In this document: positions 81 to 64,000 of the stretch, one piece after another
Layout of the letters: each line of letters opens with the position of its first letter
Position numbering within the stretch: position 1 is the stretch's first letter
Assembly (NCBI GenBank): GCA_963740715.1
Contig: CAVUGD010000017.1
Coordinates: forward strand, 4,447 to 68,446
Source of the DNA: an uncultured Verrucomicrobiae bacterium
Lineage (GTDB): Bacteria > Verrucomicrobiota > Verrucomicrobiia > Chthoniobacterales > UBA10450
Direction of reading: 5' to 3'
DNA: 64,000 bases
Made by a program: the position numbers and the translations under genes
Notes under the pieces: model-generated
What the model saw: the letters and a program-made list of their open reading frames with translations, nothing else
The model's database searches: none
Told to the model about the DNA's origin: nothing

Positions 81-509
81 ATGAAGATTGCGCTCGGCTC
101 CGATCACGCCGGTTTCCGTTACAAGGAGAAAATCAAAGAGCTTCTCCTTTCGTTAGGGCACGAGGTCGAGGATTTCGGCACGACGAGCGAGGAGCCGGTC
201 GATTATCCGAAATTCATCCGCGCGGCGGCGGAAGCGGTCGCGCGTGGCGAATGCGAGCGTGGGATCGTCCTCGGCGGCTCCGGCAACGGCGAAGCGATGG
301 CGGCGAACAAGGTGCGCGGGATCCGCTGCGCGCTTTGCTGGAACGAGGAAAGCGCCCGTCTTTCCCGTCAGCATAACGACGCCAATGTCCTGTCGTTAGG
401 CGAGCGGATGATGCCGGAAGAGCTCGCGCTCGAGATCGTGCGCATCTGGCTCACGACCGATTTCGAGGGCGGACGGCATTCGGCGCGGATCGCGCAGCTT
501 GATCTGTAG
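81..509 (+). CDS. rpiB: Ribose-5-phosphate isomerase B (RpiB/LacAB family)
   Basis: 142-aa ORF. The MKIALGSDHAGF start, GGSGNGEAMAANK and C-terminal GGRHxxRI pattern are typical of RpiB. Confidence 0.9.
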   Translation: MKIALGSDHAGFRYKEKIKELLLSLGHEVEDFGTTSEEPVDYPKFIRAAAEAVARGECERGIVLGGSGNGEAMAANKVRGIRCALCWNEESARLSRQHNDANVLSLGERMMPEELALEIVRIWLTTDFEGGRHSARIAQLDL

Positions 510-518
510 GGCGCCGTT

Positions 519-1376
519 TCAGCGCGCCAGCGCGAACCAGACGCTGAACAAAAAAACTGCGCTGACGAAGGCGTTGCTCTGGAAAAAGGCGCGGTTGATC
601 CCGGCCAGGTCGAGCCGGCCCGCGCTCCGGTGTTCGTAAACGAGGGCGGCCGCCACCAGCGCCATTCCGAAAAAGTAAATCCCGCCTAACGACGCCGCGA
701 AACCAAAGCCAAGCAGGGCCGCGAACATGGCGAGATGAAGCAATTGCGCGAGCCGGAGCGAACGCTCAATCCCGAGGCGCACGACGAGGGAACGCAGACC
801 TTCGCGCCGATCGAATTCCAGGTCCTGCGTCGCGTAAATCAAATCGAAGCCCGCCACCCAGGCGATGACCCCGGCGCCCAAAAGGAGCGGAGCGAAAGCG
901 AGGCGCCCGGTGGCCGCGATCCACGCCCCCGCCGGCGCGACCGCCAGCGCGAGCCCGAGGAAAAAATGGCTGGCGGCGGTGAAGCGTTTCGTCAGCGAGT
1001 AAAAGAAAATGATGGCGAGCGCGACGGGCGAGAGAAGAAGCGTCGTGCGGTTGATGGCCGCCGCGGCCACGACGAAGGCGGCCGAGCTGGCCGCGAGGAG
1101 GAACCAGGCCACGGGCCGGGATAGGAGCCGATGCCGCATCGCGGTCCGCGGGTTTCGCTGGTCGAGGTTCCAATCCACCAGCCGGTTGAAAAGCATCGCC
1201 GCCGTCCGGGCGAAGACCATGCAGAGCAGGACGAGGGTGAGCAGCCGCAGCGAGGGCCGCCCCTGCGTCGCAACGAGAAGCGCGCCGAGCGCGAAAGGCA
1301 GGGCGAAGACGGTGTGCGAAAACCGGATCAGGCGCAGGAAGCGGGTGAGGCCGCTTTCGTTGGGGGCCGGGTTCAT
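519..1376 (-). CDS. UbiA-family aromatic prenyltransferase (4-hydroxybenzoate polyprenyltransferase-like)
   Basis: 285-aa polytopic membrane ORF. Two Asp-rich boxes (NRLVDWNLDQRNPRT and YATQDLEFDRREG) are characteristic of the UbiA superfamily. Confidence 0.8.
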   Translation of the reverse strand: MNPAPNESGLTRFLRLIRFSHTVFALPFALGALLVATQGRPSLRLLTLVLLCMVFARTAAMLFNRLVDWNLDQRNPRTAMRHRLLSRPVAWFLLAASSAAFVVAAAAINRTTLLLSPVALAIIFFYSLTKRFTAASHFFLGLALAVAPAGAWIAATGRLAFAPLLLGAGVIAWVAGFDLIYATQDLEFDRREGLRSLVVRLGIERSLRLAQLLHLAMFAALLGFGFAASLGGIYFFGMALVAAALVYEHRSAGRLDLAGINRAFFQSNAFVSAVFLFSVWFALAR

Positions 1377-1981
1377 CGGAGCAGTGACTCGAGCCGTTCG
1401 CGGGCCGAACTGAGGATCGGGGTCCCGTGGGCGAAAAGCAGACGCTGGAATGGCCAGTCGAGCAGCCGCCGGAGGGAGCGCCGCATCTCTTTGTGGTCGG
1501 TGCAGTATTTCGCCGGTAGAAAGGTGAAGCCGTAAGGCTCGAAATTGATCAAGGCGTCGCCGACCACCATCGCCCCGCCGTCCTCCGCGAAATGGAAGGC
1601 GACCTCGCCCGGCGCCGCGCCCTCAAGGGCGATGGGGGTTACCCCGGGGCTAATCTCTTCGCCGTCCGCGATGGGCCGCGCGCAGCCGGCTGTAAACTCG
1701 CCTGCGACCGCAGTCGCGGCGAAAACCGGCGCCTTAAAACGGTCCGCAAACGCCTGGGCGGCCCGGAGATGGTTTGAGTTGGTAACCAGGACTCCGGCGA
1801 CGGGGTTCCCCCCGGCGAGTTCCTCCAAAACCGAGGCTTCCAGCGGGATCGGATCGACAAAAAAGAGTCCGGCCGGCGTTTTGACCGCCGTGGCAAAAAG
1901 ATCGGACTTCACCGAGGGATCGTAAGCCTGCCAGAAGGAGAGCGAAGGGGTCAGGGCAACGAGCTCAGAAGCCTGTGGCAT
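1373..1981 (-). CDS. Hypothetical protein, possibly degenerate metallo-beta-lactamase fold
   Basis: 202-aa ORF whose stop overlaps the UbiA-family start by 4 nt, suggesting an operon. Only weak MBL-like patterning (VLVTNSNHLR). Confidence 0.4.
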   Translation of the reverse strand: MPQASELVALTPSLSFWQAYDPSVKSDLFATAVKTPAGLFFVDPIPLEASVLEELAGGNPVAGVLVTNSNHLRAAQAFADRFKAPVFAATAVAGEFTAGCARPIADGEEISPGVTPIALEGAAPGEVAFHFAEDGGAMVVGDALINFEPYGFTFLPAKYCTDHKEMRRSLRRLLDWPFQRLLFAHGTPILSSARERLESLLR

Positions 1982-2054
1982 GAGGATTTAGCAAAGGGGC
2001 GGCGGAGCGTGGCATCGTAGCTGCTACAAAGGATATAATTACTAGAAACACCAT

Positions 2055-3278
2055 ATGATGACCTTCTCCTATCAAGCTCGCGATGGCGCCGGCAATATCG
2101 TAAACGGTATTCAAGACGCGATCAACGAGGACAACGCTGTCACTAGTCTCATGAGCCGCGGGCTCATGGTGCTTTCACTTCAGCAGAAAGCTGCTGTTAC
2201 CCGCGCCAAAAACAAAGCCTGGACGGTCAAAGAAACCGACCTGGTCCTTTTCACTCGCCAGCTTGCCACCATGATCGAGGCCGGCATTTCGCTCGTCCAG
2301 GCGCTGACCGCGCTCTACGAGCAGTGCGACCCGAAACGGCAAAAGAACCTGCGCAACGTCATCAGTGACGTCACGGCACGGGTCCAGGGCGGCGAAACTT
2401 TCAACGAATCGATCGCGAAACATCCGCGCGTCTTTAACCGGCTCTTCGTCAGCATGGTCAAGGCCGGTGAAGCGGGCGGTCTGCTCTCGGAGATTCTCGA
2501 CCGGTTGGCCGGGTTCCTCGAAGCCAGCGCTCGTCTGCGCAAAAAGGTGAAGTCGGCCATGACCTACCCGGTCATCGTCATCAGCATCGCCTTTTTGATC
2601 ACGACCTTCCTCATCGTCCGGGTGGTCCCGGTCTTTGGCGAAATCTTCAAGGACTTCGGCGCGAAATTGCCGGCTCCGACCCAATTCCTGATCGACCTGA
2701 GCGACTTCATCCGGGCCAAATGGTACTTCATGATCCTCGGCATGGGTGGCGCCTTCTTCGGGATTCGCGCCTTCCTGCGCTCGACCCGCGGCCGCCAGTT
2801 GAGCGACAAATGGAAGCTCAAGCTCCCGGTCTTCGGTCCGCTCATCCATAAGATCTGCATGTCGCGGTTTGCCCGCACCTTTGCGCAGCTCATCCGCAGC
2901 GGTGTGCCAATCCTGGAAGTGCTCGACATCGTCGGCGGCACCTCCGGCAACCACGTGGTGGAGGAGAGCATCAAGGGCGTCAGCGCCGATGTGGAGAAGG
3001 GCGACAACTTGTCGGTCGCGCTTTCGAAGAAGAAAATTTTCCCGCCGATGATGCTGCGCATGGTCGCGGCCGGTGAATCGACGGGTCGTATCGACACCAT
3101 GCTGGAGAAGATGGCGGACTTCTGGGACGAAGAGATCGAGGCCCTGCTCGACGCTCTGACCTCGTTGATCGAGCCGCTCCTGATCGTGTTCCTCGGCGTG
3201 ATCGTGGGTGGCATCGTGATCGCGATGTTCCTGCCGATCTTCAAGCTGAACGAAGTAGTTTCGCAGAGCAAAAGCTAG
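2055..3278 (+). CDS. Type II secretion / type IV pilus platform protein (GspF/PilC family)
   Basis: 407-aa ORF with a duplicated T2SSF-type module (LATMIEAGISLVQAL / FAQLIRSGVPILEVL) and three TM segments. Confidence 0.85.
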   Translation: MMTFSYQARDGAGNIVNGIQDAINEDNAVTSLMSRGLMVLSLQQKAAVTRAKNKAWTVKETDLVLFTRQLATMIEAGISLVQALTALYEQCDPKRQKNLRNVISDVTARVQGGETFNESIAKHPRVFNRLFVSMVKAGEAGGLLSEILDRLAGFLEASARLRKKVKSAMTYPVIVISIAFLITTFLIVRVVPVFGEIFKDFGAKLPAPTQFLIDLSDFIRAKWYFMILGMGGAFFGIRAFLRSTRGRQLSDKWKLKLPVFGPLIHKICMSRFARTFAQLIRSGVPILEVLDIVGGTSGNHVVEESIKGVSADVEKGDNLSVALSKKKIFPPMMLRMVAAGESTGRIDTMLEKMADFWDEEIEALLDALTSLIEPLLIVFLGVIVGGIVIAMFLPIFKLNEVVSQSKS

Positions 3279-3302
3279 GGAGAAGCTTGCTCGGTGAGAG
3301 GG

Positions 3303-3336
3303 AGGGCGGATCGCAAGGTCCGCCCTCTTTTTCTTT
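3303..3336 (+). terminator. Rho-independent terminator candidate after the pilC/gspF-like gene
   Basis: agggcgga-tcgcaagg-tccgccct stem-loop followed by ctttttcttt, 25 nt after the stop codon. Confidence 0.6.
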
Positions 3337-3341
3337 CCCCT

Positions 3342-3496
3342 CTCGTAATCGTGCTCGTGCTCATGCTCGTGCTCGAAAGCCGAAGGTGTAGCGGCGGGCG
3401 TGTCGCCCGCAAAGCGCGTCGCCAGCGGCTGACACAGCCGCCACTACATTGAGCTGGAAGATCGAGCACGAGCATGAGCACGAGCACGATTACGAG
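3342..3496. repeat. Nested palindromic intergenic element (35-bp perfect inverted repeats built from hexamer repeats)
   Basis: Left arm 3342..3376 (ctcgtaatcgtgctcgtgctcatgctcgtgctcga) is the exact reverse complement of 3462..3496. An inner inverted repeat, tgtagcggcgg (3387..3397) / ccgccactaca (3438..3448), has 1 mismatch. Confidence 0.85.
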
Positions 3497-3552
3497 GAAA
3501 GCACCCCGCGAAAAATCTTGCTCGCGGCGCGAGTGTGCGAGACCAATCCTGC

Positions 3553-4347
3553 ATGACGGAGCTGGACGAATTCAAAAGCTCCGTCGCGCTCATCGTCTCG
3601 AGCTGCGATGCCTTCTTTGATGCCTGGCGTCCGTTCGCCGACTTTTTCGAGAAGTTCTGGGACGATTGTCCGCTCGATGTTTTTCTCCTCACCAACACGC
3701 TCGAGATCCATTCGCCGCGCCTGCGCGGGATCGCGGTCGGGGAAGATCGCGGCTGGTCGAGCAACCTCCTCTTTGCCCTCGAGCAGATCACGCATCCCTA
3801 CGTGCTCTATTTCCAGGAAGACTATTTCCTGACCGCGCCGGTCGACCGGGCGCAGCTGGCGCGCGATTTTTCCGAGGCGATGGAAATGGGAGCCGACTCG
3901 CTCTGCTTCCGAGCGCGCTCGAAGTTCGACGCCGGTTTCCAGCCGCTGAACGAGCGTTACGGAATCGTCCCGCTCGATTCCGAGGGCCGCACCCGATGCC
4001 AGGTCACGCTCTGGAAACGAAGCGCGCTCCAGTCCATCCTGCGCGAGGGCGAGACGGCCTGGAATTTCGAAGCCCGCGGCAGCGCCCGCACCCAGGAGAT
4101 GCAGATTCTCTCCTACGGCAGCCGGGAAAACGCGCCGGTTCGTTACCTCATGTCTGCCATCTCGCGCGGACTCTGGATGCCGGATGCAATCGAGCTTTGC
4201 CGGTCGCACGGGGTGAAGATCGATCCCTTTTTCCGTCCGGTTTTTCCCACGCGTTCGTGGCAGCGACGTCTGCGCCGCGCGCTCGGGCGGGCCCGGTTGA
4301 AGCGCGCGCTGGCGGCACAGGCGAACAAGGTGATCGAGCTGACATGA
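3553..4347 (+). CDS. Hypothetical protein (glycosyltransferase-like context), translationally coupled to the sulfotransferase
   Basis: ORF 3535..4347; I prefer the ATG at 3553. Its stop overlaps the next start (ATGA at 4344..4347). No motif recognised with confidence. Confidence 0.5.
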   Translation: MTELDEFKSSVALIVSSCDAFFDAWRPFADFFEKFWDDCPLDVFLLTNTLEIHSPRLRGIAVGEDRGWSSNLLFALEQITHPYVLYFQEDYFLTAPVDRAQLARDFSEAMEMGADSLCFRARSKFDAGFQPLNERYGIVPLDSEGRTRCQVTLWKRSALQSILREGETAWNFEARGSARTQEMQILSYGSRENAPVRYLMSAISRGLWMPDAIELCRSHGVKIDPFFRPVFPTRSWQRRLRRALGRARLKRALAAQANKVIELT

Positions 4348-5160
4348 GGCGAATCGTTAGGTGGAACGTGAGCGGCCGCGCCCGCCAGCTCTCCGGCGGC
4401 GATGCGCTGCTCGTCTCGATCCCGAAAAGCGGCCGCACCTGGGTGCGGACTTTTCTCTGTGCCTACTTCTGCGAAAAGGTCGGGCAGCCGTTCTCGCTCG
4501 AGCCCGAACAATTTCCGGGCGTGCCGCGGGTCATCTATACCCACGATCTTTTCGAGCAACGGACGAAGGCCGATCGCTGGGACAAGGTGCGCGGGAAATA
4601 TCTGATTCCGCCGCGGGAGCGGGCCCGTCTTCCGATCATCCTGCTCGCGCGCGATCCGCGCGACGCCTTCGTCTCGCTCCACATCCAGCTCACTCGGCGG
4701 ACCAAGGAAACGCCGGAAGATTTGAAGCAAAAAAGCGCGACCGAGTTGCTGCGCGATCCGGCATTTGGCATTCGTTCGATGGTCGAGGTCATGAACTGCT
4801 GGCTGCAGGAATGGTCGGGCCGTGCCGGTTTCTTGCTTTTGCGTTACGAAACTTTGCGCCAGGACCCGGCGCCGGGATTTCGGTCGCTCCTGGAGCTCCT
4901 CGGCGAGCGACCGGTGCTGGAATCCGCGCTCGCCTCATGCGCTCAAATTTTCCGATTTCGGGCAAATGAAAAAGATGGAGAGCGAAGGGGCGTTTGAATC
5001 CAAGATTCTGCGCGCGGGCGATGCGCGCGACCCGGAGTCCTTCAAAGTGCGGCGTGGAAAAATCGGCGGCTTCCAGGATTACCTCTCGTCTAACGATCAG
5101 GAATACGCCGCGGCCGCCCTGCAAAAACTCGACCCCCGCTTTGGCTATGCCGTGACTTGA
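4344..5160 (+). CDS. Sulfotransferase-family protein, interrupted by one frameshift as sequenced (~4925-4945)
   Basis: IPKSGRTW (PAPS 5'-phosphosulfate loop) and RDPRDAFVS motifs lie in the frame of 4344. The C-terminal part (FSDFGQMKKME...RRGKIGGFQDYLS) continues in the +1 frame (ORF 4822..5160). Confidence 0.75.
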
Positions 5161-5203: not shown

Positions 5204-6855
5204 GTGGCATTCGATGAACCTAGTTCCGCTCTTCCTCCCAGCGGACTCGCGGAACTGAACCGCGCGATTCTCGAGTCGGCTCTCGACTGCATCATTACGA
5301 TGGACGCGGGCGGCGTCGTCCAGGAATGGAACCCCGCGGCCGAGCGGACCTTCGGTTACGCGCGCAGCCAGGCGGTCGGTCGTGAACTGGCCGCGCTCAT
5401 CATTCCGCCGGAGTTGCGCGAACGTCATCGCCAAGGCCTGGCCCATTATCTCAAGACCGGTGAGGGCCCGGTCCTCGGCCGCCGCATCGAGATTCCAGGT
5501 CTGCATGCGGACGGTCACCGCCTCCTGGTCGAACTCGCGATCACGGCCTTTCATATCGCCGGTGCGCCCGTCTTTCGCCGCTTACCTGCGCGATATCACG
5601 GAACGCGTGCGCGCCGAGCGCCGCCGGGACGCGCAATATGCGATCGCGAGCCTGCTCGCTCGCTTCCCGCAGCATCGAAGAGGTCGCGCCGCCGGTGATC
5701 GAGACGATTGCGCAAAGCGGGAATTGGATCTACGGCGCGCTCTGGCTGCTCGACCCGGGCGATGCCACCCTCCGTTGTCACTCTCTTTGGCACACCGCTT
5801 TTCCCGCCTTGGAAAAATTTGCCGCGGTTTCGCGCGCGATGGTCTTTGCCGGGACGACGAGTTTGCCCGGCCGCGTGGTTGGTTCGCGCAAGCCCACCTG
5901 GGTGACCGACGTGAAAATTGATTCCGCTTTTCCCCGGGCGGGCGCGGCCGCGGAGGCCGGTCTGGCCGGCGCCTTTGCCTTCCCCGTCGCCGCGGCGGGC
6001 GAGATCAAGGGTGTGATCGAACTCTTCAGCGCCGAGCCGGTGCAACCGGACGAAGATTTGCTTCTCCTCGTCGACTCGTTAGGCAGCCAAATCGGGCATT
6101 TCATTGAACGCCGCCAGATCGAGGTCGAGTTGCAGCGCCGCAAGGAATTGGCGGAAGCGGCCAACGCCGCCAAGGACCGTTTTCTCGCCACTCTCAGCCA
6201 TGAATTGCGCACCCCGCTCACTCCCGTGCTGATGTGGGCCGGCGGCATGCTGCACGATCCCGATTTGCCTAACGAAATGCGGGAGGGCCTGAAAATGATC
6301 GCCCGTAACGTCGAGCTCGAAGCGCGCCTGATCGACGACCTGCTCGACCTGACCCGGATCGCGCGCGGCAAACTGCGCCTTCATTTGCAGAAGACCGACG
6401 CCCATGAAGTCCTGCGTCACGCGATCGAGATTGTGCGGGAAGGGGATTGTCCTCCGGGTCTCAATTTGGAAGTCGAGTTGGCGGCAGACCATTCGCAGGT
6501 GGAAGGCGATCCGACCCGGTTACAGCAGGTTTTTTGGAATCTCCTGCGCAATGCGACCAAGTTTACCCCCGCCGGCGGCCGGGTGGTGGTGCGGACCGAA
6601 AACCCTGAGCCCGGAACAATCGCGATCGCGGTCAGCGACACCGGCGCCGGAATCGCCCCGGAAGATTTGGGTAAGATTTTCGATGCTTTTGAGCAGGTGA
6701 GCGATCGACACGAAGGGCTCGGACTCGGGCTCGCGATCAGCAAAGCCATTGTCGATCTGCACGGCGGCCAGATTCGCGCGGAAAGCGCGGGCCTCGGCCA
6801 GGGCGCGACCTTCATCGTCGAGTTGCCCGGGGCCGGAGCGAGTCGGCCCGCTTAA
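5204..6855 (+). CDS. PAS-GAF-HisKA-HATPase_c sensor histidine kinase, two frameshifts as sequenced (~5572-5575 and ~5661-5666)
   Basis: The PAS domain (ORF 5204..) ends ...HIAGAPVF. The linker AAYLRDITERVRAE is in the next frame. GAF plus the H-box (LATLSHELRTPL), N-box (NLLRNATKFTP) and G-boxes (DTGAGI, GLGLGLAISK) are in ORF 5638..6855. Confidence 0.85.
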
Positions 6856-7765: not shown

Positions 7766-8754
7766 ATGAAAACATACTCCTCGAAATTCCCGCGGCTCTG
7801 GCTGCATCTCGCAGCCGCGGTTTGTCTTCTCTTTTCCAGCCATGTCGGGCGGCGGACAAAGTCACGATCCGCTTCGGGCATTTCCCAAACATCACTCACG
7901 CCCAGGGCGTCATCGCCCACGCCTTGTCGCGGCAGGGGAAAGGCTGGTTTGAAGAACGGCTCGGGCCGGATGTGGCCATCCAGTGGTTTACTTACAACGC
8001 CGGGCCTTCCGCGATGGAAGCTGTCTTCGCCGGCTCACTCGATCTTACCTATGTCGGCCAGGGTCCGGCTTTGAACGCACACTTCAAATCGGAGGGCGAA
8101 GAGATCCGGGTGATCGGCGGTGCAGCCACCGGCGGAGCTGCTTTAGTCGTTAGGCCAGATGGCTCGATCAAAAGCGCGGCCGATCTTCGCGGGAAGACGA
8201 TCGCCACACCGCAGCTCGGCAACACCCAGGACATTTCCTGCCGCGCCTGGCTCAAGGCCCAGGGCTACAAGGTCACACTCATCGGGGGTGAGGTGAAAGT
8301 CCTGCCCGTGGCCAACCCGGACCAGCTCGGCGCCTTTACCAGAAAGCAGGTCGATGCCGTCTGGACGGTGGAGCCCTGGGTCACGCGGTTGGAGCGGGAA
8401 GCTGGCGGCAAAGTCTTTCTCGAGGACAACAACGTGCAGACGACCTGGCTGGTCTCGAGCGCAAAATTTCTCAAGGAGCAGGCTGCGCTGGTGAAGAAGG
8501 TCGCCGCCGCCAACATCGAGTTGACGCAGTGGATCCAGGCGCACCCGGAGGAGGCTCAGAAACTTCTCGCCGCGGAATTAAAGGAGGAAACCAAAGCGAC
8601 GATCGCGCCGGAGGCGATCGCGCAAGCGTGGGGCCGGATCAAATTCACCGCCGAGGTTTCGCCCCAACTGGTGACCAAGGCGGTGCAGGACTCCAAGGAT
8701 GCCGGCCTGTTTCGGGGGGCGACTGACACCTCGAAGTTGCTCGCGCTCCCATGA
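7766..8754 (+). CDS. ABC transporter substrate-binding protein (NitT/TauT, aliphatic sulfonate/nitrate-like), one frameshift as sequenced (~7846-7852)
   Basis: The signal peptide MKTYSSKFPRLWLHLAAAVCLLFSS lies in one frame (ATG 7766). The mature SsuA/NMT1-like domain (KVTIRFGHFPNITHAQ...) is in ORF 7822..8754. Confidence 0.8.
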
Positions 8755-9641
8755 CGATCGCGCCTAACGAGACCCGCCGCACCGTCACCATGAAACCGAC
8801 TTCGAATCCGGCCATCCAGCCTGTCACGAGTTCCTCGGTGCGCGAGGAACTGCAAATCGTGCCGCCGAGCAAGCTGACGGTGACAGACGTTTCCAAAACC
8901 TTTAAGACCCGGACCGGCAGCGTGCAGGCGCTCGACCGCGTGAGCCTGAAAGTCGGGGAAGGCGAATTCGTCTGCCTGGTCGGCGCGAGTGGCTGCGGCA
9001 AATCGACCCTTCTCAACATGATCGCCGGCCTCGAAAAACCGGATAGCGGCACCGTCTCCGCCGACGGCCGGAACGTGACCGAACCGGGGCGCGATCGGCT
9101 CGTCATGTTCCAGGAATCGGCGCTCTTCCCCTGGCTCGATGTGCTCGGAAATGTCCTCTTCGGTTTGAAAATGAAACCGAACCTAACGAAGAAAGATCGC
9201 GTCGACGTGGCGCGTTATTATCTCGAGCTCGTCGGCCTGACGAAGTTTGAGCGGGCCAACATCCACGAGCTTTCGGGCGGAATGAAACAGCGGGTCGCGC
9301 TCGCCCGCGCGCTTGCGCCCAATCCGCGCATGCTGCTGATGGATGAGCCTTTCGCGGCCCTCGACGCGCTCACGCGCGAACAACTCTACGGCGATCTGCA
9401 AAAAATCTGGGCGGCCCGGCGCAAGACGATCGTCTTCGTCACGCACAACGTGCGCGAAGCCGCCTGCCTGGGCGATCGGGTGGTGCTCTTTTCGCCGCAC
9501 CCGGGCCGGATCCGGGAAGAATTCGTGATCAAACTGCCGCGTCCGCGCGACATCAACAGCACGGACCTGGCCGAATACGCCACTCGGATCATGCGCTCAC
9601 TCAAGGGCTTCAAGGCCGACAGCGAGGAGGTGGCAGAATGA
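8751..9641 (+). CDS. ABC transporter ATP-binding protein (NitT/TauT family)
   Basis: Walker A GASGCGKST, signature LSGGMKQRV and Walker B LLMDEPF. ATGA overlap with the substrate-binding protein gene. Confidence 0.9.
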   Translation: MTIAPNETRRTVTMKPTSNPAIQPVTSSSVREELQIVPPSKLTVTDVSKTFKTRTGSVQALDRVSLKVGEGEFVCLVGASGCGKSTLLNMIAGLEKPDSGTVSADGRNVTEPGRDRLVMFQESALFPWLDVLGNVLFGLKMKPNLTKKDRVDVARYYLELVGLTKFERANIHELSGGMKQRVALARALAPNPRMLLMDEPFAALDALTREQLYGDLQKIWAARRKTIVFVTHNVREAACLGDRVVLFSPHPGRIREEFVIKLPRPRDINSTDLAEYATRIMRSLKGFKADSEEVAE

Positions 9642-10409: not shown

Positions 10410-10697
10410 ATGAACAAGGAGTCGGTGCACGCCGCGGGCGAAATCACGATCGTCAATCAACTGGGGCTGCACGCGCGCCCCGCCGCCGAGTTCGTTAGGC
10501 GAGCGAATGCCTTTCGCTCCGAAATCTGGCTGGTGACCAAGGCCGGGCGTTTCTCCGCCCTCAGCCTGATCGACGTCATGCGCGCCAATCTCGAGCAGGG
10601 CGCTGTCGCTACCCTCGAAGCGTGCGGGCCCGACGCCGTCGAAGCGGTCGAACGCCTGGCCAAAGTGGTGCGCGAGATGAGGGATTACGCCGATTAG
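10410..10697 (+). CDS. ptsH: HPr-family phosphocarrier protein
   Basis: 95-aa ORF. The active-site region NQLGLHARPAA is diagnostic of HPr. Confidence 0.85.
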   Translation: MNKESVHAAGEITIVNQLGLHARPAAEFVRRANAFRSEIWLVTKAGRFSALSLIDVMRANLEQGAVATLEACGPDAVEAVERLAKVVREMRDYAD

Positions 10698-11587
10698 CGC
10701 AGCGGCCGCGCGACCAGAATCCCGCTGTTGGTGCTGTAGCGCGCGAGATAGCTCGAGAGGCGGGAATCGACCACGACCTTGCCGGAGTTCCGCGGCGAAG
10801 AAGCGTGCATGAAATGGAGCACGCCGTTGTTCGCCCGGTAGGCGAGTCCGACATGCGAGGTCGAGTAAAGCCCGGGTCGATCGCGCGAGATAATCCCGAT
10901 GATGTCGCCACTCTTCAGCTTCGATTCGATCCGGGCGACGCGATTTTTCGGGACCTGATAAAGGGGCCGCGCAGTGACTTTCGCCTCCATCCGGCCTAAC
11001 GGCGCGAGAAGGGAGGGGTTCGCCTTGAGGTAGCGGTAATGCCGCCAGCCGAAAGTCATTTCGTGGGCGGCGTGATTGACCCGCACCCCGCCGAGCTGGC
11101 GGGTGAGATCGCTGACCAGGCCGCGCCGGTCGTTGTCCGAGAGCCATTCCTCCAGGTAATGCAGGCGCGAAAGATATTCGCCAGTGCATTGGCCGCCGCG
11201 GTAACGATCGAGTTCGATGTAGCCGAGGAGCCGTTCCGGCGTCCACTTCACTTCCGCATCGTTCAGCATGCGGGCGAAGCCGAGCGAGATCTCGAAAAAC
11301 GTCCAGCAATCCATCCCGAGAAAATTCGCCGAAGGCGCCTCGATCCGGTCGTCGATCTCGAGCGTGAACGATTTGTAGCGCGTCCCGACGAGTGCGCGGC
11401 CGACCGCGGCGGTGCGCTCGCCGATGCGGAGCGATTTCCAGTCATTCGCCTTCGCCTGTCGCACGAGGTGATCGAATTTTTCCCGGCCCTTGAAGACGGT
11501 GCCAAACGGAAGCGTCCCGCTGTTCGCGAGGCCGGCGCCGGCTCCGAAGAAAAAGAGGACGACAAGGTAAATTCTAAGCGCGCGCAT
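10694..11587 (-). CDS. Secreted DUF1460 (amidase-like) domain protein
   Basis: 297-aa ORF with a signal peptide. The sequence pattern (GMDCWTFFE..., YLEEW..., HVGLAY) resembles DUF1460/N-acetylmuramoyl-L-alanine amidase-like proteins. Family assignment is from memory. Confidence 0.55.
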   Translation of the reverse strand: MRALRIYLVVLFFFGAGAGLANSGTLPFGTVFKGREKFDHLVRQAKANDWKSLRIGERTAAVGRALVGTRYKSFTLEIDDRIEAPSANFLGMDCWTFFEISLGFARMLNDAEVKWTPERLLGYIELDRYRGGQCTGEYLSRLHYLEEWLSDNDRRGLVSDLTRQLGGVRVNHAAHEMTFGWRHYRYLKANPSLLAPLGRMEAKVTARPLYQVPKNRVARIESKLKSGDIIGIISRDRPGLYSTSHVGLAYRANNGVLHFMHASSPRNSGKVVVDSRLSSYLARYSTNSGILVARPLR

Positions 11588-11632: not shown

Positions 11633-12130
11633 CTATTCTGCCGGGGCCGGGACGAGGAGAACCGGGCGCGCGCCGGCCTTCAGCACGCCCTCGGTCACGC
11701 TCCCGACGAGGAGGCAGTAAACCGAGCCGTGGCCGTGCGAGCCCATCACGATGAGGTCGGCGGAAATCTCCTGCGCCGTCTTCAGGATTTCTTCCACCAC
11801 CGTTCCTTCGCGTTCGTGGGCGATCGTGTTCAGCCCGCTCCCGGAAAGTTCGGCCTGGAGGGTCTCGAGCCGGCTCTTTCCCTTCTCGTTAGGCGCATCC
11901 ACTGGCAGATAACCGGTACTGCCCACCGGGAGGCCGCCCGCCATTCCCATCTCGGGCATGCCGATTCCAGGATAACCGATGGTGGCCGCGGGAAAGACCG
12001 GGACGGCGGCGATCTCGCGCACGTGGACGAGATGCAACTCCGATCCGAGTGCGCCCGCTAATTCGCGCGCCTGGGTAAGCACGCCTTCCATCGCGGGGGA
12101 GAAGTCGACCGGGACGAGGATTCTTTTCAT
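11633..12130 (-). CDS. Universal stress protein (UspA family)
   Basis: MKRILVPVDFS start (ATG at 12130) and the C-terminal GSHGHGxxxxxxxGSVT ATP-binding motif. Confidence 0.85.
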   Translation of the reverse strand: MKRILVPVDFSPAMEGVLTQARELAGALGSELHLVHVREIAAVPVFPAATIGYPGIGMPEMGMAGGLPVGSTGYLPVDAPNEKGKSRLETLQAELSGSGLNTIAHEREGTVVEEILKTAQEISADLIVMGSHGHGSVYCLLVGSVTEGVLKAGARPVLLVPAPAE

Positions 12131-13458: not shown

Positions 13459-13465
13459 GGGGAAC

Positions 13466-13738
13466 TTAAGCCGCTTTTTTTTGGCGCGGACTGTCTTTGA
13501 CGGGGAAGGGGATAACGGCTGCTTCCTCGACCGCTTTGAGCACGGGCGCAGCCTCGTAGGAGAGCTTGCCTTCGATTACTTCGGTCAGGGCCACGTCGGC
13601 CAGGCCGGTGCCGGGCGCGCAGGCGACCAGCGGGCGATGCCCGAGGGCGAGTTGGCGGACGCGCCGCGAGATCACATTGACGAGCATCATCTGATTGGTG
13701 ATGACTTTCGAGGCGGACATAAGAAGATGAGTTTTCAT
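13466..13738 (-). CDS. rpoZ: DNA-directed RNA polymerase subunit omega
   Basis: 90-aa ORF from the ATG at 13738. NQMMLVNVISRRVRQL...ALTEVIEGKL matches the conserved omega core. Confidence 0.7.
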   Translation of the reverse strand: MKTHLLMSASKVITNQMMLVNVISRRVRQLALGHRPLVACAPGTGLADVALTEVIEGKLSYEAAPVLKAVEEAAVIPFPVKDSPRQKKAA

Positions 13739-13926
13739 AGGTAACGAACCGACAGAGTTCGCGGCTGACGACGAGTGTTTTTCCCAGAACAGGGATAGGG
13801 AACTTGGAGATGTCCCCGAAAAATCGCAGCAGAGATACTGGGACACCTTCGTCGACTCCGGCCGGAACACAACCGGTATCTCCGGCGCCGAACCTTGGAG
13901 GCGGGATCGTTAGCAAAGGAGCCGCT

Positions 13927-14517: not shown

Positions 14518-14535
14518 GATTGAAAGAGCAACGGG

Positions 14536-18116: not shown

Positions 18117-18199
18117 CTCAGATCGTTCTTCGACGAAGGCGGGAGCGCAACTCCGCGGCCGGGAGTGGCGCGAAGGGTCCCCTTTCGCGAAAGTCTCCG

Positions 18200-53115: not shown

Positions 53116-53480
53116 GGGCGGCCTCGCTGGTTGACGACCGGCTGGACTTCGTCCTCGCTCGCGGGGTGGCTCGAGGAATTCAGCCTAACGATGCTCTGAT
53201 CCGTGATCGGGATCATCTGGAGGTAGCCTTCCTTGAGCCGGCGCTGCAGCGCGGTGCGGGAAGTGAGAGCGGCGATCTGCACCCTGGCGTCGTCGTTCTG
53301 GGTGCGGGTGGCGATCAAGTCCTGCTCGAGCGCGCGCCGCTGCACCCCCTGGTGGTGGAGCTGGACGCTGAGGTAGACGTAGCTCAGGCCGGTGGCGGCG
53401 AGAAAAGCCACGATCACGATCCAGCGCGCGAGGGCCGGGGCATCGATCGGGTTGAAATTTTTCCGCCGGCGCCGGTTCAT
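53112..53480 (-). CDS. ftsL: Cell division protein FtsL-like
   Basis: 122-aa ORF from the ATG at 53480 (ATGA overlap with rsmH). Basic N-terminus, a single TM and a coiled-coil-like region, positioned between rsmH and ftsI. Confidence 0.65.
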   Translation of the reverse strand: MNRRRRKNFNPIDAPALARWIVIVAFLAATGLSYVYLSVQLHHQGVQRRALEQDLIATRTQNDDARVQIAALTSRTALQRRLKEGYLQMIPITDQSIVRLNSSSHPASEDEVQPVVNQRGRP

Positions 53481-54403
53481 CCGATCCTTTCTGCAACGCG
53501 CAACTTGGCGCTGCGCGAACGCGGGTTGGCCCGTTGCTCGACCGCGTCGGGTTCGATCGGTTTCGAGGTGATGAGGCGCAGGGAGTAGTCGGGATTCGGT
53601 CGCGGCTCGGGCCATTCCGGCCGGTCGAGGAACTCGCGGCTGCGGTCGCGGAAGAAATTCTTCACGATCCGGTCCTCGAGTGAATGAAAGGTGATGACCG
53701 CGATCCGGCTCCCGGGCTCGAGGCGACTCGTTAGGGCAAGGAGGCCGTCCGCGAGCGCGCCCAGCTCGTCGTTCACTTCCATCCGCAAGGCCTGGAAGAC
53801 CTGGGTCGCGGGGTGGCGCCGCCCGTGACGGCCGACGGTTTTCTCGATCGCCTTGGCCAGCGCGAGGGTTTCGCGAAAGGGCGTTTCCTTGCGCAGCTTC
53901 ACGATCTGGCTGGCGATGCGGCGCGCGGCCGGCTCTTCGCCCAGCTCGCGGAAAATATTCCTCAACTCTTCTTCGGTGTAGCTGTTGACGACTTCGGAGG
54001 CGGTCAGCTCGCGGCGCGGATCCATCCGCATGTCGAGCGGGCCGTTGCGCATGAGGCTGAAACCGCGGTCGGCGTTTTCCAACTGCCGCGAGGAAACGCC
54101 AAGATCGAGCAGGGCGCCGCCGATTTGGCCGATCCCGAGCTCGTCGAGGACGCGGCCGGCATCGCGAAAATTCGCCTGATGCAGAGTGACGCGGCGGCCG
54201 AAATTCGTCAGGCGCGCGCCGGCGAATTCGAGCGCGTCCGGATCCTGGTCGAGGGCCAGGACATCGGCCCCGGTCCGCAGGATGGCCTCGGTATGGCCGC
54301 CGCCGCCGCAGGTGCCGTCGAGAATGAGCGAACCCGGCCGCGGCGCGAGCAGCTCGATCGCTTCGGTCGCGAGCACCGGGCGATGATAGGTAAAGTCTTC
54401 CAT
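53477..54403 (-). CDS. rsmH: 16S rRNA (cytosine1402-N4)-methyltransferase
   Basis: HRPVLATEAIELL, DGTCGGGGHTEAIL, DLGVSSRQL, ITFHSLEDRIVK. Confidence 0.9.
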   Translation of the reverse strand: MEDFTYHRPVLATEAIELLAPRPGSLILDGTCGGGGHTEAILRTGADVLALDQDPDALEFAGARLTNFGRRVTLHQANFRDAGRVLDELGIGQIGGALLDLGVSSRQLENADRGFSLMRNGPLDMRMDPRRELTASEVVNSYTEEELRNIFRELGEEPAARRIASQIVKLRKETPFRETLALAKAIEKTVGRHGRRHPATQVFQALRMEVNDELGALADGLLALTSRLEPGSRIAVITFHSLEDRIVKNFFRDRSREFLDRPEWPEPRPNPDYSLRLITSKPIEPDAVEQRANPRSRSAKLRVAERIG

Positions 54404-55563: not shown

Positions 55564-55651
55564 TTTCGAGGATTGGCGTTGTTATCCCGCAATTCCTTTC
55601 CACGCCCTCGTTAGGCCGTGGGGAAGATTAGGTATGCGATCGGCTATCACG

Positions 55652-56456: not shown

Positions 56457-56491
56457 GCGGTGCCGCCCTTCGTTCTCTCGCCTAACGAGAA

Positions 56492-56896: not shown

Positions 56897-57683
56897 GCGC
56901 GGAGAGCTACGCCTCCGCCGAGCCCGGCGGCTTGCTTTTCCATTGGGAACGTCCGCGCCGGCGAAAAGTCGCGATCGCCGGTTTCCTCGTCGGCTCGGCT
57001 CGTGCTCCACGCGCTTTGCTTTTATCTTTTTCAGGTGGTCTATCCGCCGGCCATTTCGCTTCTGCCGCCTCCGGCGCAGGTCAGCTTTGATCGCGCCGAC
57101 CTCGGCGGAGGCCCGGACGTTTTTGAACTGGGTCGAAGCGGAAGATCCCGCGCTCGCTTCGCAAACCCAGCGGCCGGCCGATGCGCGCGCCTTTCAACTG
57201 CCGAAGGTCGCGCACGTTCCTTCCTATCTCGCCGTGCCGCCGAAGCTGAAGGAATTGCCCGCCCGCAAAATCTCGCCGGCCGCTCCTTCCGCCATGCCGC
57301 CGGCGCCCGTTCCGGTCGCGCTCGCGCCCGATCCCGTCGCCGCCATTGCCGGCGCCGACGATCCTGATTTTCTCCGGCGATCTGCGCGATCTTCCGGTCA
57401 CCCATCCGGAATTGAAATTCCGCGCCGCCTTGCGCGATGCCCCGGAGAGCGCGCGCGTTTTCGGATCGCGGTCGATTCGTTAGGCGCGGTCCGTTATAGT
57501 TTTCTCGAGCAATCCTCCGGCGATGCCGGGCTCGACCAGCAGGCGCGGCAGGCGCTCGCGCTCTGCCGTTTCACGATGGCGCAGACTGCGTCGCCTAACG
57601 ACGCCCTGACCTGGGCGAGCGCGACCTTCGAGTTTGGCACCGACCTCACCATGCCGCCGGGCGCGACGGAGCGCGCGCCGTGA
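56893..57683 (+). CDS. TonB-like energy transducer, 2-4 frameshifts as sequenced
   Basis: GTGA overlap with exbD. The TM (IAGFLVGSA/LVLHALCFYLFQVV), Pro-rich linker and C-terminal TonB_C-like FRIAVDSLGAVRYSFLEQSSGDAGLDQQARQALALCRF are spread over three frames. Confidence 0.5.
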
Positions 57684-59161: not shown

Positions 59162-60410
59162 ATGAATCGACGAGTCGTCATCACCGGAATGGGCGTCGCC
59201 ACGCCGTTAGGCATGGAGTTGGAGCCCTATTGGCAAAACCTGCTCGAGGGCAAAAGCGGCATCGTCGAGATCTCGCGCTTCGACACCACCGGGTTCGACT
59301 GCACGATCGCGGGCGAGATTCGCGACTTCGATCCGAAAACGGTTTTCAAGAATCCCAAGGAACACAAGCGGACCGATCGTTTTGCCCATCTCGCGATGGC
59401 CGCGACAAAAGGGGCGATGCGCGATTCCGGGATCGACCTCGACAAAGTAAATCGCGACCGCTTCGGCGTGCTCGTGAGCAGCGGGATCGGCGGCCTCAAG
59501 ACGCTCGAGGATCAGCACACCGCGCTCATGACCAAAGGTCCCAGCCGTGTTTCCGCGTTCACCATTCCGATGCTCATCAGCAACATGGCGAGCGGGCTCA
59601 TCTCGATGGAATTTGGATTGCGCGGACCGAACATGTGCATCGTCACGGCCTGTGCGACTTCCAACAACGCCATCGGCGAAGCCTGGCGCATCATTAAATT
59701 TGGCGACGCCGACATCTTCCTCGCGGGCGGTTCGGAAGCGGCCATCATCCCGATCGGCCTCGGCGGTTTCGGGGCGATGAAAGCACTCAGCACCCGCAAC
59801 AGCGAACCGCAGCGCGCTTCGCGGCCGTTCGATCGCGATCGCGACGGATTCGTCATGGGCGAAGGCGCGGGCGTGATGGTGGTCGAGGAACTCGAGCACG
59901 CCAAAGCGCGCGGCGCGAAAATCTGGTGCGAGCTGGCCGGCTACGGGCTTTCCGCCGATGCCTATCACATGACGGCGCCGCCGCCCGATGGAGAAGGCGC
60001 GGCCCGGGCGATGAAAATGGCGCTCGGTCACGCCGGGGTGAACCCGAGCGATGTCGATTACGTCAACGCGCACGCCACTTCCACCGGTCTCGGCGACATT
60101 TGCGAGACGCGCGCGATCAAGACGGTCTTCGGCGATCACGCGAAGAACGGCCTCGCCATCAGCTCGACCAAATCGATGACCGGCCATTTGTTAGGCGGAG
60201 CGGGCGCGATCGAGATGGCGGCCTGCGCGATGGCGATCCGCGACGGCAAGATCCCGCCCACGATCAATCTCGAAAATCCCGATCCGGAGTGTGATCTCGA
60301 TTACACTCCAAACGTCGCGCGGGAGAAAAAAGTGCGCGATCGCGGTCAACAATTCTTTCGGGTTCGGCGGCCACAACGCGACCCTGGTCGCGACCGAGTT
60401 CAAGGACTGA
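59162..60410 (+). CDS. fabF: Beta-ketoacyl-ACP synthase II, one frameshift as sequenced in an A6 run (60326..60331)
   Basis: RRVVITGMG, active site ACATS, HMTAP and NAHATST. The conserved end AIAVNNSFGFGGHNATLVATEFKD* is in the -1 frame and stops at 60408..60410. Confidence 0.9.
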
Positions 60411-61014: not shown

Positions 61015-61227
61015 ATGCCGGAGATTGGAAAAATGCTGGTGGTTTTTGGAGCGGTCATCGCTCTCATCGGGCTCGCGCTCTGGAGCGGATTCGGGGCCGG
61101 TTGGCTGGGACGTTTGCCGGGGGATATCCGGATCGAGCGCGGACATTCCGCTTTTTATTTTCCGATCGTCACCTGCATCATCATCAGCATCGTGGTCAGC
61201 GTGCTCCTCTCTCTTTTCCGTCGTTAG
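61015..61227 (+). CDS. DUF2905-family small membrane protein
   Basis: 70-aa ORF; LGRLPGDIRIERGHSAFYFPIVTCIIISIV is the family's typical core. Confidence 0.7.
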   Translation: MPEIGKMLVVFGAVIALIGLALWSGFGAGWLGRLPGDIRIERGHSAFYFPIVTCIIISIVVSVLLSLFRR

Positions 61228-61232
61228 GCAAA

Positions 61233-62050: not shown

Positions 62051-62836
62051 ATGCCTGATCAGATCCGTGTCCTCGTCTGGGGCGAAAATGTGCACGAGCG
62101 GAAGAACGCGATCGTGGGCGGGATTTATCCCGATGGAATGCACCACTGCATCGCCGAAGGTCTGCGCGAGGACTCAGCCTTCACCGTTCGAACGGCCACG
62201 CTACAGGAAGAAGAGCACGGCCTAACGAAAAGCCGACTCGCGCAAACTGACGTCCTGCTCTGGTGGGGCCACGCCGCGCATGGCGAGGTCCAGGATGCGG
62301 TCGTCGAGCGGGTGCTGGCGCGGGTCTGGGAAGGGATGGGCTTCATCGCGCTCCATTCCGCGCACTACTCGAAAATCTTCAAGCGCCTGATGGGCACGAG
62401 CTGCTCGCTCACCTGGCGGGAAGCGGGCGAACGCGAACGGCTGTGGGTCTGCAATCCGGGCCACCCCATCGCGCGCGGGATCGATCGCTCTTTTGAGATC
62501 GAGAACACGGAAATGTATGGAGAGCCCTTCGCCATCCCGACTCCGGACGAGATTGTTTTCCTTTCCTGGTTTGAAGGGGGCGAAGTTTTCCGCAGCGGCT
62601 GCACCTGGAAACGCGGCAACGGGAAGATTTTCTATTTCCGTCCCGGGCACGAAACCTATCCGATCTACTTTCACCCGGTCGTTAGGCAGGTGTTGCGCAA
62701 TGCCGCCCACTGGGCCGCGCCGGAAGGTCAACCGTGGATCGACAGTTGCCCGAATGTCCCGGTGGAAGAAGCGCGCGAAAAGCTGGTCGCGAAAGGTCCG
62801 CGCCTGCACCAGGAAGGCGAAGCGGGATTTCGTTAG
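62051..62836 (+). CDS. ThuA-domain protein (trehalose-utilisation-like)
   Basis: [12 protein letters not shown]..., [38 protein letters not shown]. Confidence 0.75.
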
Positions 62837-62849
62837 CCCGCCTCTATGT

Positions 62850-62949
62850 TGTCATCCTGAGCAGAGCGAAGGATCACTGACTATCTCGCTCTTCAGAACG
62901 CACTAAGCGCAGAAATGGTCAGAGATGTTTCGCTCCGCTCAACATGACA
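62850..62949. repeat. Divergent GTCATCCTGAGC-type palindromic element
   Basis: tgtcatcctgagcagagcgaaggatc (left) and gatgtttcgctccgctcaacatgaca (right) are related to the TGTCATCCCGA family termini. Confidence 0.7.
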
Positions 62950-63004
62950 GTTGTTGGGAAAGGGTCGCGGCCATTCCCTGGGGGCGCACGCGTTGGTCGG
63001 GCGA

Positions 63005-64000
63005 CTACTTCTCGGGTAGCACTTTTTTCACCAGCCGATCAATCCCACCCTGCGCAAATTCGCTCGCCGGATAAAGCTTCTGCGCTTTCAGATACCAGGC
63101 CAGGCTCGAGCCGATTTCGTCTTTCGCTTCCAGCTGTTCCGCGGTCCTCAAGGTGCGCACGAACTCGGCTGCTTCCGTCGTTAGGTTGGCCCGCATCTGG
63201 TTCAATTTGCTGTCGTCCGGATTGTCTTTGTAGACCTTCTCGATCGTCTCCCACGCGCCCGCGTAGTCGCCGTGCTTTTCGATCTCGCCCGCCTGGATGA
63301 TCGCGGTCTCCACCACCTGCATCTGGTCGAGGATTTTTTTCAGCTGCTCCTGCCGATCCGGATAGAGCGCGGCCGCGGCGATGAAGCGCAGCTTATCGTT
63401 GTAAATCTGCCGATTGTTATGCTGGCTGATCAATTGATCGAGATCGACCAGCGCTTTTTGTTGCACGTCGGCCTGCGAAAAAATGAGCCCGGAAACATCG
63501 GCCAACGCCGGGTTCCGCGGCCAGATTTCGGTCGCGGCCTTGAGCTCGGTTTCGAGCGTGGCGCGGTCGCCACTGACCGCGGCGTTGCGCGCCTTGGCCA
63601 GATGCATCGCGCTCACTGTGCGCGCGGTTTCGATCGCGGCGAGCGGCTTTGAGTCGTCGAAATCTTTCGCGATTTTATCGAGCTCTTTGACCAGCTTTTC
63701 CGCGAGTTGGTAATCCTTCACTTCGATCGCGGAGATGAGCTGGTAATTCTTCTGCGAGAACTCCAGCACCTGGCGTTTTTCCTCCCGCGGCAGGGTGCGC
63801 ACTTCGGGCATGAATTCGCCGACGCTGAACGCTTCCGCCAGCCGCTTGGAGGCGCTTTGCAGCTCGTCTTTCTGCAGGAGGAACCGGAAGGCCTGGATGC
63901 TTTGGTTGACGTCGCGGATCGCTTCATGGGCGAGCGCGTCGAGCGTGCCGACCGTCGGCGGCAGGCCGCTGCTCTTGGCAAAGAGATCTTTCGTGTCTTT
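63005..64000 (-). CDS. Hypothetical helical-repeat (TPR-like) protein, 5'-partial at the window edge
   Basis: ORF 63005..63811 remains open in frame up to position 64000 (...KDTKDLFAKSSGLPPTVGTLDAL...). Confidence 0.6.
   Translation of the reverse strand, partial: KDTKDLFAKSSGLPPTVGTLDALAHEAIRDVNQSIQAFRFLLQKDELQSASKRLAEAFSVGEFMPEVRTLPREEKRQVLEFSQKNYQLISAIEVKDYQLAEKLVKELDKIAKDFDDSKPLAAIETARTVSAMHLAKARNAAVSGDRATLETELKAATEIWPRNPALADVSGLIFSQADVQQKALVDLDQLISQHNNRQIYNDKLRFIAAAALYPDRQEQLKKILDQMQVVETAIIQAGEIEKHGDYAGAWETIEKVYKDNPDDSKLNQMRANLTTEAAEFVRTLRTAEQLEAKDEIGSSLAWYLKAQKLYPASEFAQGGIDRLVKKVLPEK

Follow-up and report, generated by a model that had tools for sequence, protein, structure and literature searches.

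A nine-base word, TCGTTAGGC, recurs on both strands of a 64-kb stretch of DNA (hereafter the window; positions 4,447 to 68,446 of contig CAVUGD010000017.1, GenBank assembly GCA_963740715.1) from an uncultured member of the Chthoniobacterales, which are abundant, largely uncultured soil bacteria. Our analyses strongly support the conclusion that this word is held in place by a force acting on DNA, not on protein, even where the encoded proteins change. We tentatively read TCGTTAGGC as a lineage-specific word that may serve as a putative DNA uptake (self-recognition) sequence for natural transformation, by analogy with the DNA uptake sequences (DUS) of Neisseriaceae and the uptake signal sequences (USS) of Pasteurellaceae.

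Abundance, sharpness and reading frames of the word

Both strands of the window were scanned for the 8-mer TCGTTAGG, and 100 dinucleotide-preserving shuffles served as the null. The scan returned 58 exact copies, 29 on the plus and 29 on the minus strand, whereas the shuffles averaged 0.72 copies and reached 4 at most, corresponding to an enrichment of ~80-fold. These are the same copies, coordinate for coordinate, that an earlier inspection of the letters (the sequence-only reading) had listed by eye. The excess also held at window scale against low-order Markov and codon-shuffled nulls, as only 0.8–2.2 copies are expected under Markov models of orders 1–3 and 8.4 remain after the codon shuffle described below. 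Fifty of the 58 copies extend to TCGTTAGGC, in agreement with the earlier estimate of about 50. Ranked by count, TCGTTAGG/CCTAACGA is the top 8-mer of the window and GCCTAACGA (n = 50) the top 9-mer. The word occupies ~0.8% of the window DNA, the G+C content of which is 61.9% (60–65% had been guessed).

The word is sharply defined. Position counts over the 58 copies showed full information at positions 1–8, the ninth base being C in 50 copies, and the internal positions 3 and 4 are invariant. Exact copies of TCGTTAGGC outnumber 9-mers with one mismatch by 50 to 28, 27 such variants being possible, and the shuffles yield 11.4 matches with at most one mismatch. The "many one-mismatch variants" of the sequence-only reading were therefore overstated. 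The 7-mer CGTTAGG occurs 65 times in total, and the seven core-only copies noticed earlier are all present. They comprise the one-mismatch variants CCGTTAGGC (10994–11002, −; 31977–31985, +; 32390–32398, +; 59204–59212, +), ACGTTAGGC (29891–29899, −) and GCGTTAGGC (46740–46748, −), and the core alone at 34088–34094 (−), where both end positions differ.

Outside positions 1–9, none of the flanking positions of the 58 copies is conserved (<0.2 bit). Base 10 is a purine in 43 of 58 copies, as had been remarked, and a slight purine/A preference extends across four bases on the 3' side; no other flank signal was seen. Consistently, 214 copies pooled from the window and motif-bearing relatives gave T (92%)-CGTTAGG-C (89%) with a weak A-rich 3' flank again. 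Because the flanks carry no information, the copies are not pieces of a longer repeat, as the sequence-only reading had held. Repetitive extragenic palindromes and miniature inverted-repeat transposable elements have a longer conserved unit, usually intergenic and with a hairpin, whereas here information ends with the nine bases and 49 of the 58 copies lie inside open reading frames (ORFs).

The earlier claim that all four stop-free frames are used was borne out. In sense orientation, 17 of the 58 copies read TCG-TTA-GG (Ser-Leu-Gly) and 11 read x-GTT-AGG (Val-Arg); in antisense orientation, 14 read CCT-AAC-GA (Pro-Asn-Asp/Glu) and seven read CTA-ACG (Leu-Thr). Nine lie outside called ORFs. 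The remaining two frames of the word hold TAG or TAA and are used solely as genuine stops. Indeed, four of the nine copies outside ORFs (18786, 32053, 34554 and 51753) supply the stop codon of a gene, as TAG or as TAA on the other strand. The word also imposes rare codons: TTA and CTA account for 56 and 21 of 2039 Leu codons, respectively, and AGG for 40 of 1400 Arg codons. The corresponding tripeptides are mostly encoded by the word itself (17 of 23 Ser-Leu-Gly and 14 of 17 Pro-Asn-Asp/Glu). When synonymous codons were shuffled within genes, 8.4 ± 1.4 copies remained, which is about the number of the untouched copies outside ORFs. Three results rule out a protein motif or codon bias as the cause: the use of all stop-free frames, the loss of coding copies on codon shuffling and the codons found in outgroups (see below).

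Sense and antisense copies number 28 and 21, with no significant departure from parity, and the two strands of the window carry equal numbers. GC skew is positive and its cumulative curve rises steadily over ~0–54 kb, indicating a single replication direction across that span. The word nevertheless shows no replication polarity, being split 29:29.

Distribution, origin and retention of the copies

We compared 80 MraY loci with 10-kb flanks from species-representative genomes (one per GTDB species), spanning Chthoniobacterales, other Verrucomicrobiota and outgroups; individual loci are denoted by L numbers. The window MraY has hundreds of relatives at 80–96% identity, and the named ones are metagenome-assembled genomes (MAGs) of Chthoniobacterales, Spartobacteria or Verrucomicrobiota. 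The organisms are known as MAGs only, and a look-up of the exact window MurD protein gave no record. Word density was 1.8 per kb in L001, 1.42 in L003, 1.09 in L241 (MraY 96% identical), 0.91 in the window, 0.64 in L002 and 0.43 in L014; it fell to 0.11–0.17 per kb in L004, L010 and L012 and to ~0 in all other loci (about 70). In a neighbour-joining tree from seven proteins of the division and cell wall (dcw) cluster, from which L241 was left out, the window clusters with L001, L002 and L003 in a single clade. L004, L010 and L014 fall in a neighbouring group, with the motif-free L005, L007, L009 and L011 beside them. High density is thus confined to the clade of the window; the neighbouring clade has few copies, and more distant loci have none.

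The word was also sought in metagenomes as two copies 5–35 bases apart. Among the matches listed, at least about 15 informative contigs carry dispersed copies on both strands; many unrelated tandem repeats were returned besides. The informative contigs are mostly JGI records, taken to be soil metagenomes, and L140 excepted they do not match window regions. The word is therefore not peculiar to the dcw region. One metagenomic locus, L118, contains a near-perfect inverted duplication around ~2230 (positions 1–4380) with mirrored motif positions. It is probably an assembly hairpin artefact, and its apparent motif density is inflated by the duplication. Scans of viral contigs for word pairs returned chance pairs for the most part. 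Contig L235 (IMGVR_UViG_3300044812_000039), which is classed as viral, has a G+C content of 0.64 and encodes a ParB-like gene, carries six copies of TCGTTAGGC in 8.3 kb, all in the first 4 kb (1159–3990). It could be a host–prophage boundary or a mobile element that picked up the host word.

The window copies of the dcw region were compared, one by one, with the orthologous codons of relatives. Some outgroups encode the identical peptide with common codons, for example TCGCTCGGC for Ser-Leu-Gly and ATCGTCCGGCTC for Ile-Val-Arg-Leu. A different peptide, such as Ala-Leu-Gly, Ser-Leu-Arg or Phe-Ile-Arg-Arg, is more frequent. Nineteen sites have three or more outgroup orthologues. At 15 of these the encoded amino acids depart from those of most outgroups, and at four the recoding is purely synonymous. 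None of 76 aligned motif sites is conserved in L005, L007, L009 and L011, whereas ordinary 8-mers are conserved there at 7–11%. Because the outgroups hold other codons or amino acids and none of these sites is conserved, sequence comparison indicates that the copies are derived within the motif-bearing clade, by point substitutions and at a cost to protein sequence.

Members of the clade keep motif sites 2–4 times as often as ordinary 8-mers. Retention was 17 of 21 sites in L241 (87% nucleotide identity to the window; 36% for all 8-mers, P = 3e-5), 13 of 21 in L003 (76% identity; 15%, P = 1e-6) and 5 of 7 in L001 (79% identity; 18%, P = 0.003). In L002 (83% identity), 6 of 15 sites were retained against 26%, which is not significant. 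Flanks of shared sites are no more identical than random positions and less so than the flanks of random conserved 8-mers, and around window-only sites conservation falls clearly below the average. Retention is therefore not a by-product of conserved surroundings. From these alignments, the word is placed preferentially in weakly constrained stretches and is protected in its own right. A trace of recent recombination in the form of raised flank identity was looked for at motif sites and was absent. Individual sites also turn over. L241 has perfect copies where the window has four one-off variants; conversely, at four sites with a copy in the window, L241 shows three one-off variants and one sequence that differs at three positions. 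Collectively, the codon shuffle, the rare codons, the comparison of orthologous sites and the clade restriction strongly support the DNA-level force that the sequence-only reading had argued for.

A second, unrelated hyperabundant word was found in a sister clade. In L012 (1861–11417), AAGATCGACA occurs nine times in 11.6 kb on both strands, against 0.03 expected, and it is present too in L005, L007, L011 and L019; the window clade has zero copies. As with TCGTTAGGC, its copies are clade-specific at orthologous positions. The two words have at most TCGWT in common, in one alignment, an overlap that may be due to chance. In L053 (2358–19811), a more distant Verrucomicrobiota MAG, the near-palindrome GCAAWTTGC has 17 copies in 21 kb, where 0.69 are expected. 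Fifteen of these point the same way, in contrast to the window word, which is symmetric. Hyperabundant words confined to particular lineages thus seem to recur in this group. L043 (10.7 kb, an Akkermansiaceae MAG) contains CCTGCTAG six times, ~33-fold above the order-3 Markov expectation, which may reflect either a further word of this kind or chance, given the short locus. Full-text literature searches found no earlier description of TCGTTAGGC or AAGATCGACA.

Copies and genes along the window

Genes were called by simple codon statistics, the ORFs covering ~90% of the window, and identified by comparison with Pfam and NCBIfam. Families from these databases back rpiB, pilC/gspF, a histidine kinase, an ABC transporter, an MgsA-type ATPase, an Lhr helicase, two Ser/Thr kinase-TPR genes and cytochrome c assembly genes. 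A complete dcw cluster, including a murC-murB fusion, lies on the minus strand at 35–54 kb. The 58 exact matches are given below with their strand; each is TCGTTAGGC unless another ninth base is stated, in which case it is TCGTTAGG.

At the left end, rpiB has two sense copies, at 150–157 (+, ninth base G) and 393–401 (+), and the UbiA-family gene one (684–692, −). The copy at 4354–4361 (+, ninth base T) lies between called ORFs. In the GAF-histidine kinase gene, one copy is in sense (6076–6084, +) and one in antisense (6267–6275, −). A sense copy follows in the NMT1-like binding-protein gene (8147–8155, +), and the ABC ATPase gene has two in antisense (8762–8770, −; 9182–9189, −, ninth base T). 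ORF 10410–10697 and the MgsA/RarA-type ATPase gene each hold a sense copy (10492–10500, +, and 12721–12729, +, respectively), and the Usp gene holds an antisense copy (11886–11894, +).

The longest motif-free stretch, 5.7 kb (12721–18434), is not significant because the largest gap between copies is within the random range. It coincides with a five-ORF operon (13927–17739, −) without any Pfam family. One of its ORFs has a prepilin-like N-terminus by eye (SAFTLVET, then a hydrophobic helix), and two give sub-threshold HpsA-like hits. The sequence-only reading had named PilC/GspF and pseudopilin genes in the window. The former is supported by a family match (the type IV pilus or type II secretion platform gene at 2055–3278), whereas for the latter there are only these two features.

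Copies resume in the Lhr helicase gene, in sense in the N-terminal ORF (18434–18442, +), then at 18785–18793 (−), where the plus-strand TAA is the stop of ORF 18200–18790 of the split gene, in antisense at 19436–19444 (−) and in sense at 19513–19521 (+) and 19822–19830 (+). No copy lies in the tmRNA gene (21132–21489, −; Rfam 166.9 bits; tag peptide ADHQDLALAA). The methyltransferase gene has one in antisense (21770–21778, +). Two adjoining paralogous Ser/Thr protein kinase-TPR genes (23232–28815; 950 and 886 amino acids), the second with a much weaker kinase domain, follow. The first carries an antisense copy at 23370–23377 (−, ninth base G), a sense copy at 24048–24056 (+) and an antisense copy at 25181–25189 (−); the second carries one in sense (26818–26826, +) and one in antisense (27909–27917, −). 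Beyond them, sense copies lie in a cytochrome c assembly gene (29281–29289, −) and the ResB-like gene (31300–31308, −), and an antisense copy in a cytochrome c assembly gene (30201–30209, +). The minus-strand TAA of the copy at 32053–32060 (+, ninth base G) is the stop of ORF 32056–33192, which also holds a sense copy (33153–33161, −). An intergenic copy at 34202–34210 (−) precedes that at 34554–34562 (+), the TAG of which is the stop of ORF 34279–34560.

In the dcw region, many sites are common to relatives. There are copies in ftsZ (sense, 36103–36111, −), ftsA (antisense, 37061–37069, +; common to L004) and ftsQ (antisense, 38645–38653, +, and 38896–38904, +; both common to L003). Three lie in ddl: a sense copy at 39510–39517 (−, ninth base G), where L014 has TCGTTAGGC, an antisense copy at 40077–40085 (+; common to L003) and a sense copy at 40130–40138 (−; common to L003, L004, L012 and L014). 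Sense copies are further found in murC-murB at 40751–40759 (−; common to L003, one-off in L241) and 41808–41816 (−; common to L003), and in murG at 43609–43617 (−; common to L001, L002 and L003). The copy at 44507–44515 (−) is within the frameshifted ftsW region, and that at 45368–45376 (+; common to L001) is antisense to ORF 45097–45666, a LysM protein in L241. In murF, sense copies occupy 48469–48477 (−; common to L002), 48493–48501 (−; common to L001, L002 and L003) and 49339–49347 (−; common to L001, L003 and L010), and murE has one at 50372–50380 (−; common to L001, L002 and L003). At 51752–51760 (−), TAG closes the frameshifted ftsI ORF 51754–53115; an antisense ftsI copy at 52808–52816 (+) is window-only. 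ORF 53112–53480 has a sense copy (53183–53191, −) in which IVRL is synonymously recoded, and rsmH an antisense copy (53728–53735, +, ninth base G; common to L014).

The remaining copies lie between called ORFs (55608–55616, +), between exbB-like and exbD-like genes (56480–56488, −), in ORF 57087–57683 (sense, 57477–57485, +; antisense, 57593–57601, −, common to L003), directly upstream of a UDG-family gene (61221–61229, +), in a ThuA-like gene (antisense, 62220–62228, −; sense, 62679–62687, +) and in antisense in ORF 63005–64000 (63178–63185, +, ninth base T).

Compared with relatives, indels of 1–2 bases split four genes, three of which are essential cell-wall or division genes: ftsW (~44313), ftsI (~51786), murC-murB (~42410–42430) and lhr (18570–18790). 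FtsI (588 amino acids), FtsW (380) and MurC-MurB (764) are intact in the close relative L241, and the splits are probably assembly indel errors, not pseudogenes. A tie between the frameshifts and motif sites, which might have hinted at base modification, was ruled out, because no indel falls at a copy of the word and the L241 genes are unbroken. The murC-murB fusion spans 40452–42747 (−) as a single gene; the same arrangement has been reported in Verrucomicrobium.

Candidate explanations and their weight

Judged by sequence, TCGTTAGGC is an analogue, not a member, of DUS/USS. DUS (GCCGTCTGAA and its dialects) are likewise exact words, of 9–12 bases, found about once per kb in both orientations, and an internal stop codon limits their usable frames. 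They too are clade-specific, with variants in related clades and some family members lacking the word, and in Neisseriaceae they occupy ~1% of the genome at 1–2.5 copies per kb (PMC3630211). In contrast to the dialects, which keep a CTG core, TCGTTAGGC lacks this core, has no sequence similarity to DUS and belongs to another phylum. The USS of Pasteurellaceae (AAGTGCGGT / ACAAGCGGT) resemble TCGTTAGGC in having a 9-bp core, a mainly intragenic location and several frames. Perfect USS are said, in work by Smith et al. from 1995, to outnumber one-off variants by ~2:1, a ratio that TCGTTAGGC approximates. USS are also placed at weakly constrained protein positions, with amino-acid changes (PMC3458573). 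The cores, however, are unrelated, and the A-rich flank of TCGTTAGGC is far weaker than the phased AT-rich flanks of USS. The likeness to DUS/USS proposed by the sequence-only reading therefore stands for density, occupancy, symmetry, sharpness, clade specificity, frames and tolerant positions, but not for the word itself.

If TCGTTAGGC is an uptake sequence, the word would be read on double-stranded DNA in either orientation. An uptake machinery, probably based on a type IV pilus, would bind and import word-carrying fragments preferentially, and imported conspecific fragments would recombine into the chromosome. Word-carrying alleles would then replace word-less ones, a molecular drive by which copies would build up where proteins tolerate them and be restored after decay. 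Such a drive would account for the results because it predicts gain by substitution, protein cost, retention independent of flanks and turnover of sites. For DUS/USS, we take biased uptake with subsequent recombination to be the accepted explanation (Maughan et al. 2010, cited in PMC3458573).

Several observations weigh against an uptake sequence. Of a machinery for transformation (type IV pilus, ComEA, ComEC and DprA), only the pilC/gspF-like gene was found in the window, and it scores under the NCBIfam equivalog cut-offs for PilC and GspF alike. The putative pseudopilins found no support in Pfam, NCBIfam or PDB sequence searches. DUS are read by the minor pilin ComP, and none of the window ORFs was recognised as ComP-like. 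Neisseria uses inverted DUS pairs as terminators, whereas the window has one close pair (40077/40131), inside ddl. USS are evenly spaced; the 58 copies here are no more evenly spaced than random (coefficient of variation 0.90). DUS dialects and USS types differ by 1–3 bases, whereas TCGTTAGGC and AAGATCGACA are unrelated. An exchange of specificities, for example those of methyltransferases, explains unrelated words in sister clades no less well than divergence of a receptor would. Any other drive that acts on a specific sequence, or selection that keeps binding sites dense, would also produce these sequence features. Moreover, no description of competence or uptake sequences in Verrucomicrobia or Chthoniobacterales was found in the literature. 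We place the uptake reading first, though short of an even degree of confidence, because of the single pilC/gspF-like gene, the unsupported pseudopilin/HpsA-like operon, the unrelated sister-clade words and an uptake bias that is so far a prediction.

The rival that survives best, which we consider unlikely, is an intracellular drive resembling that behind highly iterated palindrome 1 (HIP1), in which a methyltransferase, nuclease or mismatch repair of the very-short-patch kind would convert near-matches to TCGTTAGGC or protect it, without uptake. HIP1 (GCGATCGC) is over-represented 15–300-fold, intragenic, subject to lineage variants and, like TCGTTAGGC, clade-specific and retained between genomes above background (PMC5861425). 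Unrelated sister-clade words would be expected from horizontally swapped specificities, and the L053 word GCAAWTTGC is palindromic. TCGTTAGGC itself is not a HIP, because it is not palindromic: HIP1 is a palindromic octamer nested in methyltransferase sites and spans most of a phylum, whereas TCGTTAGGC is asymmetric and marks a narrow clade. HIP1 as the signal of the window was rejected, as GCGATCGC occurs 23 times against 10 expected, only ~2-fold. A contiguous non-palindromic 9-mer would be an atypical methyltransferase target, and no DNA methyltransferase or Vsr-like gene was found in the window. Known very-short-patch repair enriches words less than ~2-fold, in contrast to the 80-fold seen here, and the one-off variants are undepleted. 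A link of HIP1 to transformation has recently been proposed, and HIP1 itself is now reported to act in that process (bioRxiv 10.64898/2026.06.24.733823). In a further reading that we also hold to be doubtful, TCGTTAGGC would be no uptake tag and instead the footprint of an undescribed intracellular system that writes or protects a clade-specific self word of 9–10 bp all over the chromosome. Such a system would act via sequence-directed gene conversion, repair or nuclease attenuation, with its specificity swapped wholesale, as between TCGTTAGGC and AAGATCGACA.

Two further rivals are disfavoured by the exactness of the word, its protein cost, the turnover of its sites and its lack of strand polarity. 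In one, which is improbable, an abundant protein that organises the chromosome or associates with the nucleoid would bind the word at many sites, and selection would keep these sites dense. The strand symmetry, the spread of the word all along 64 kb and the retention of its sites would agree with this, and a structural role has been put forward for HIP1 (PMC5861425). However, parS, matS, SlmA-binding and Noc-binding sites (SBS, NBS) are known to occur in tens of copies per genome, mostly as palindromes or degenerate sequences, whereas here an exact 9-mer is imposed with amino acids changed at 15 of 19 sites. Individual sites also turn over between close relatives, which suggests that the property concerned is density and not position.

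We think it quite improbable that TCGTTAGGC is a Chi-like self marker attenuating a nuclease of the RecBCD/AddAB or another type in both orientations. Chi, the FtsK-orienting polar sequences (KOPS) and the architecture imparting sequences (AIMS) are, like TCGTTAGGC, short, exact and non-palindromic words marking a chromosome, and TCGTTAGGC also stands on the putative mobile or viral contig L235. Known Chi sites are G-rich words of 5–8 bases, and Chi and KOPS/AIMS are strongly co-oriented with replication and only few-fold enriched. TCGTTAGGC is distributed 29:29 over the strands although GC skew indicates one replication direction, and it is not Chi or KOPS because it is not polar.

That there is no signal at all, only remnants of a longer mobile repeat, an effect of protein motifs or codons, or an artefact of assembly, has next to no probability: it can appeal to the raw count and to the assembly-like frameshifts of the window, but the flanks are unrelated, all stop-free frames and both orientations are used, coding copies vanish under the codon shuffle and independent assemblies of other studies bear the word, often at identical positions, so that artefact, mobile-repeat and protein-level explanations are refuted.

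Hyperabundant words are known elsewhere; what is new here is the phenomenon in a further phylum, with a pair of unrelated words in sister clades. To our knowledge, sequence-specific DNA uptake is established in two proteobacterial families only, and the evolutionary reason for uptake specificity is still debated. In practice, TCGTTAGGC could serve as a sequence barcode at species level, to help in binning and in assigning hosts, and as a candidate tag for making DNA transformable into organisms without genetic tools. If it is not an uptake tag, the word would point to an unknown genome-marking mechanism. If it is one, the phenomenon would extend to another phylum, and the unrelated word of the sister clade would constitute a natural experiment on specificity switching.

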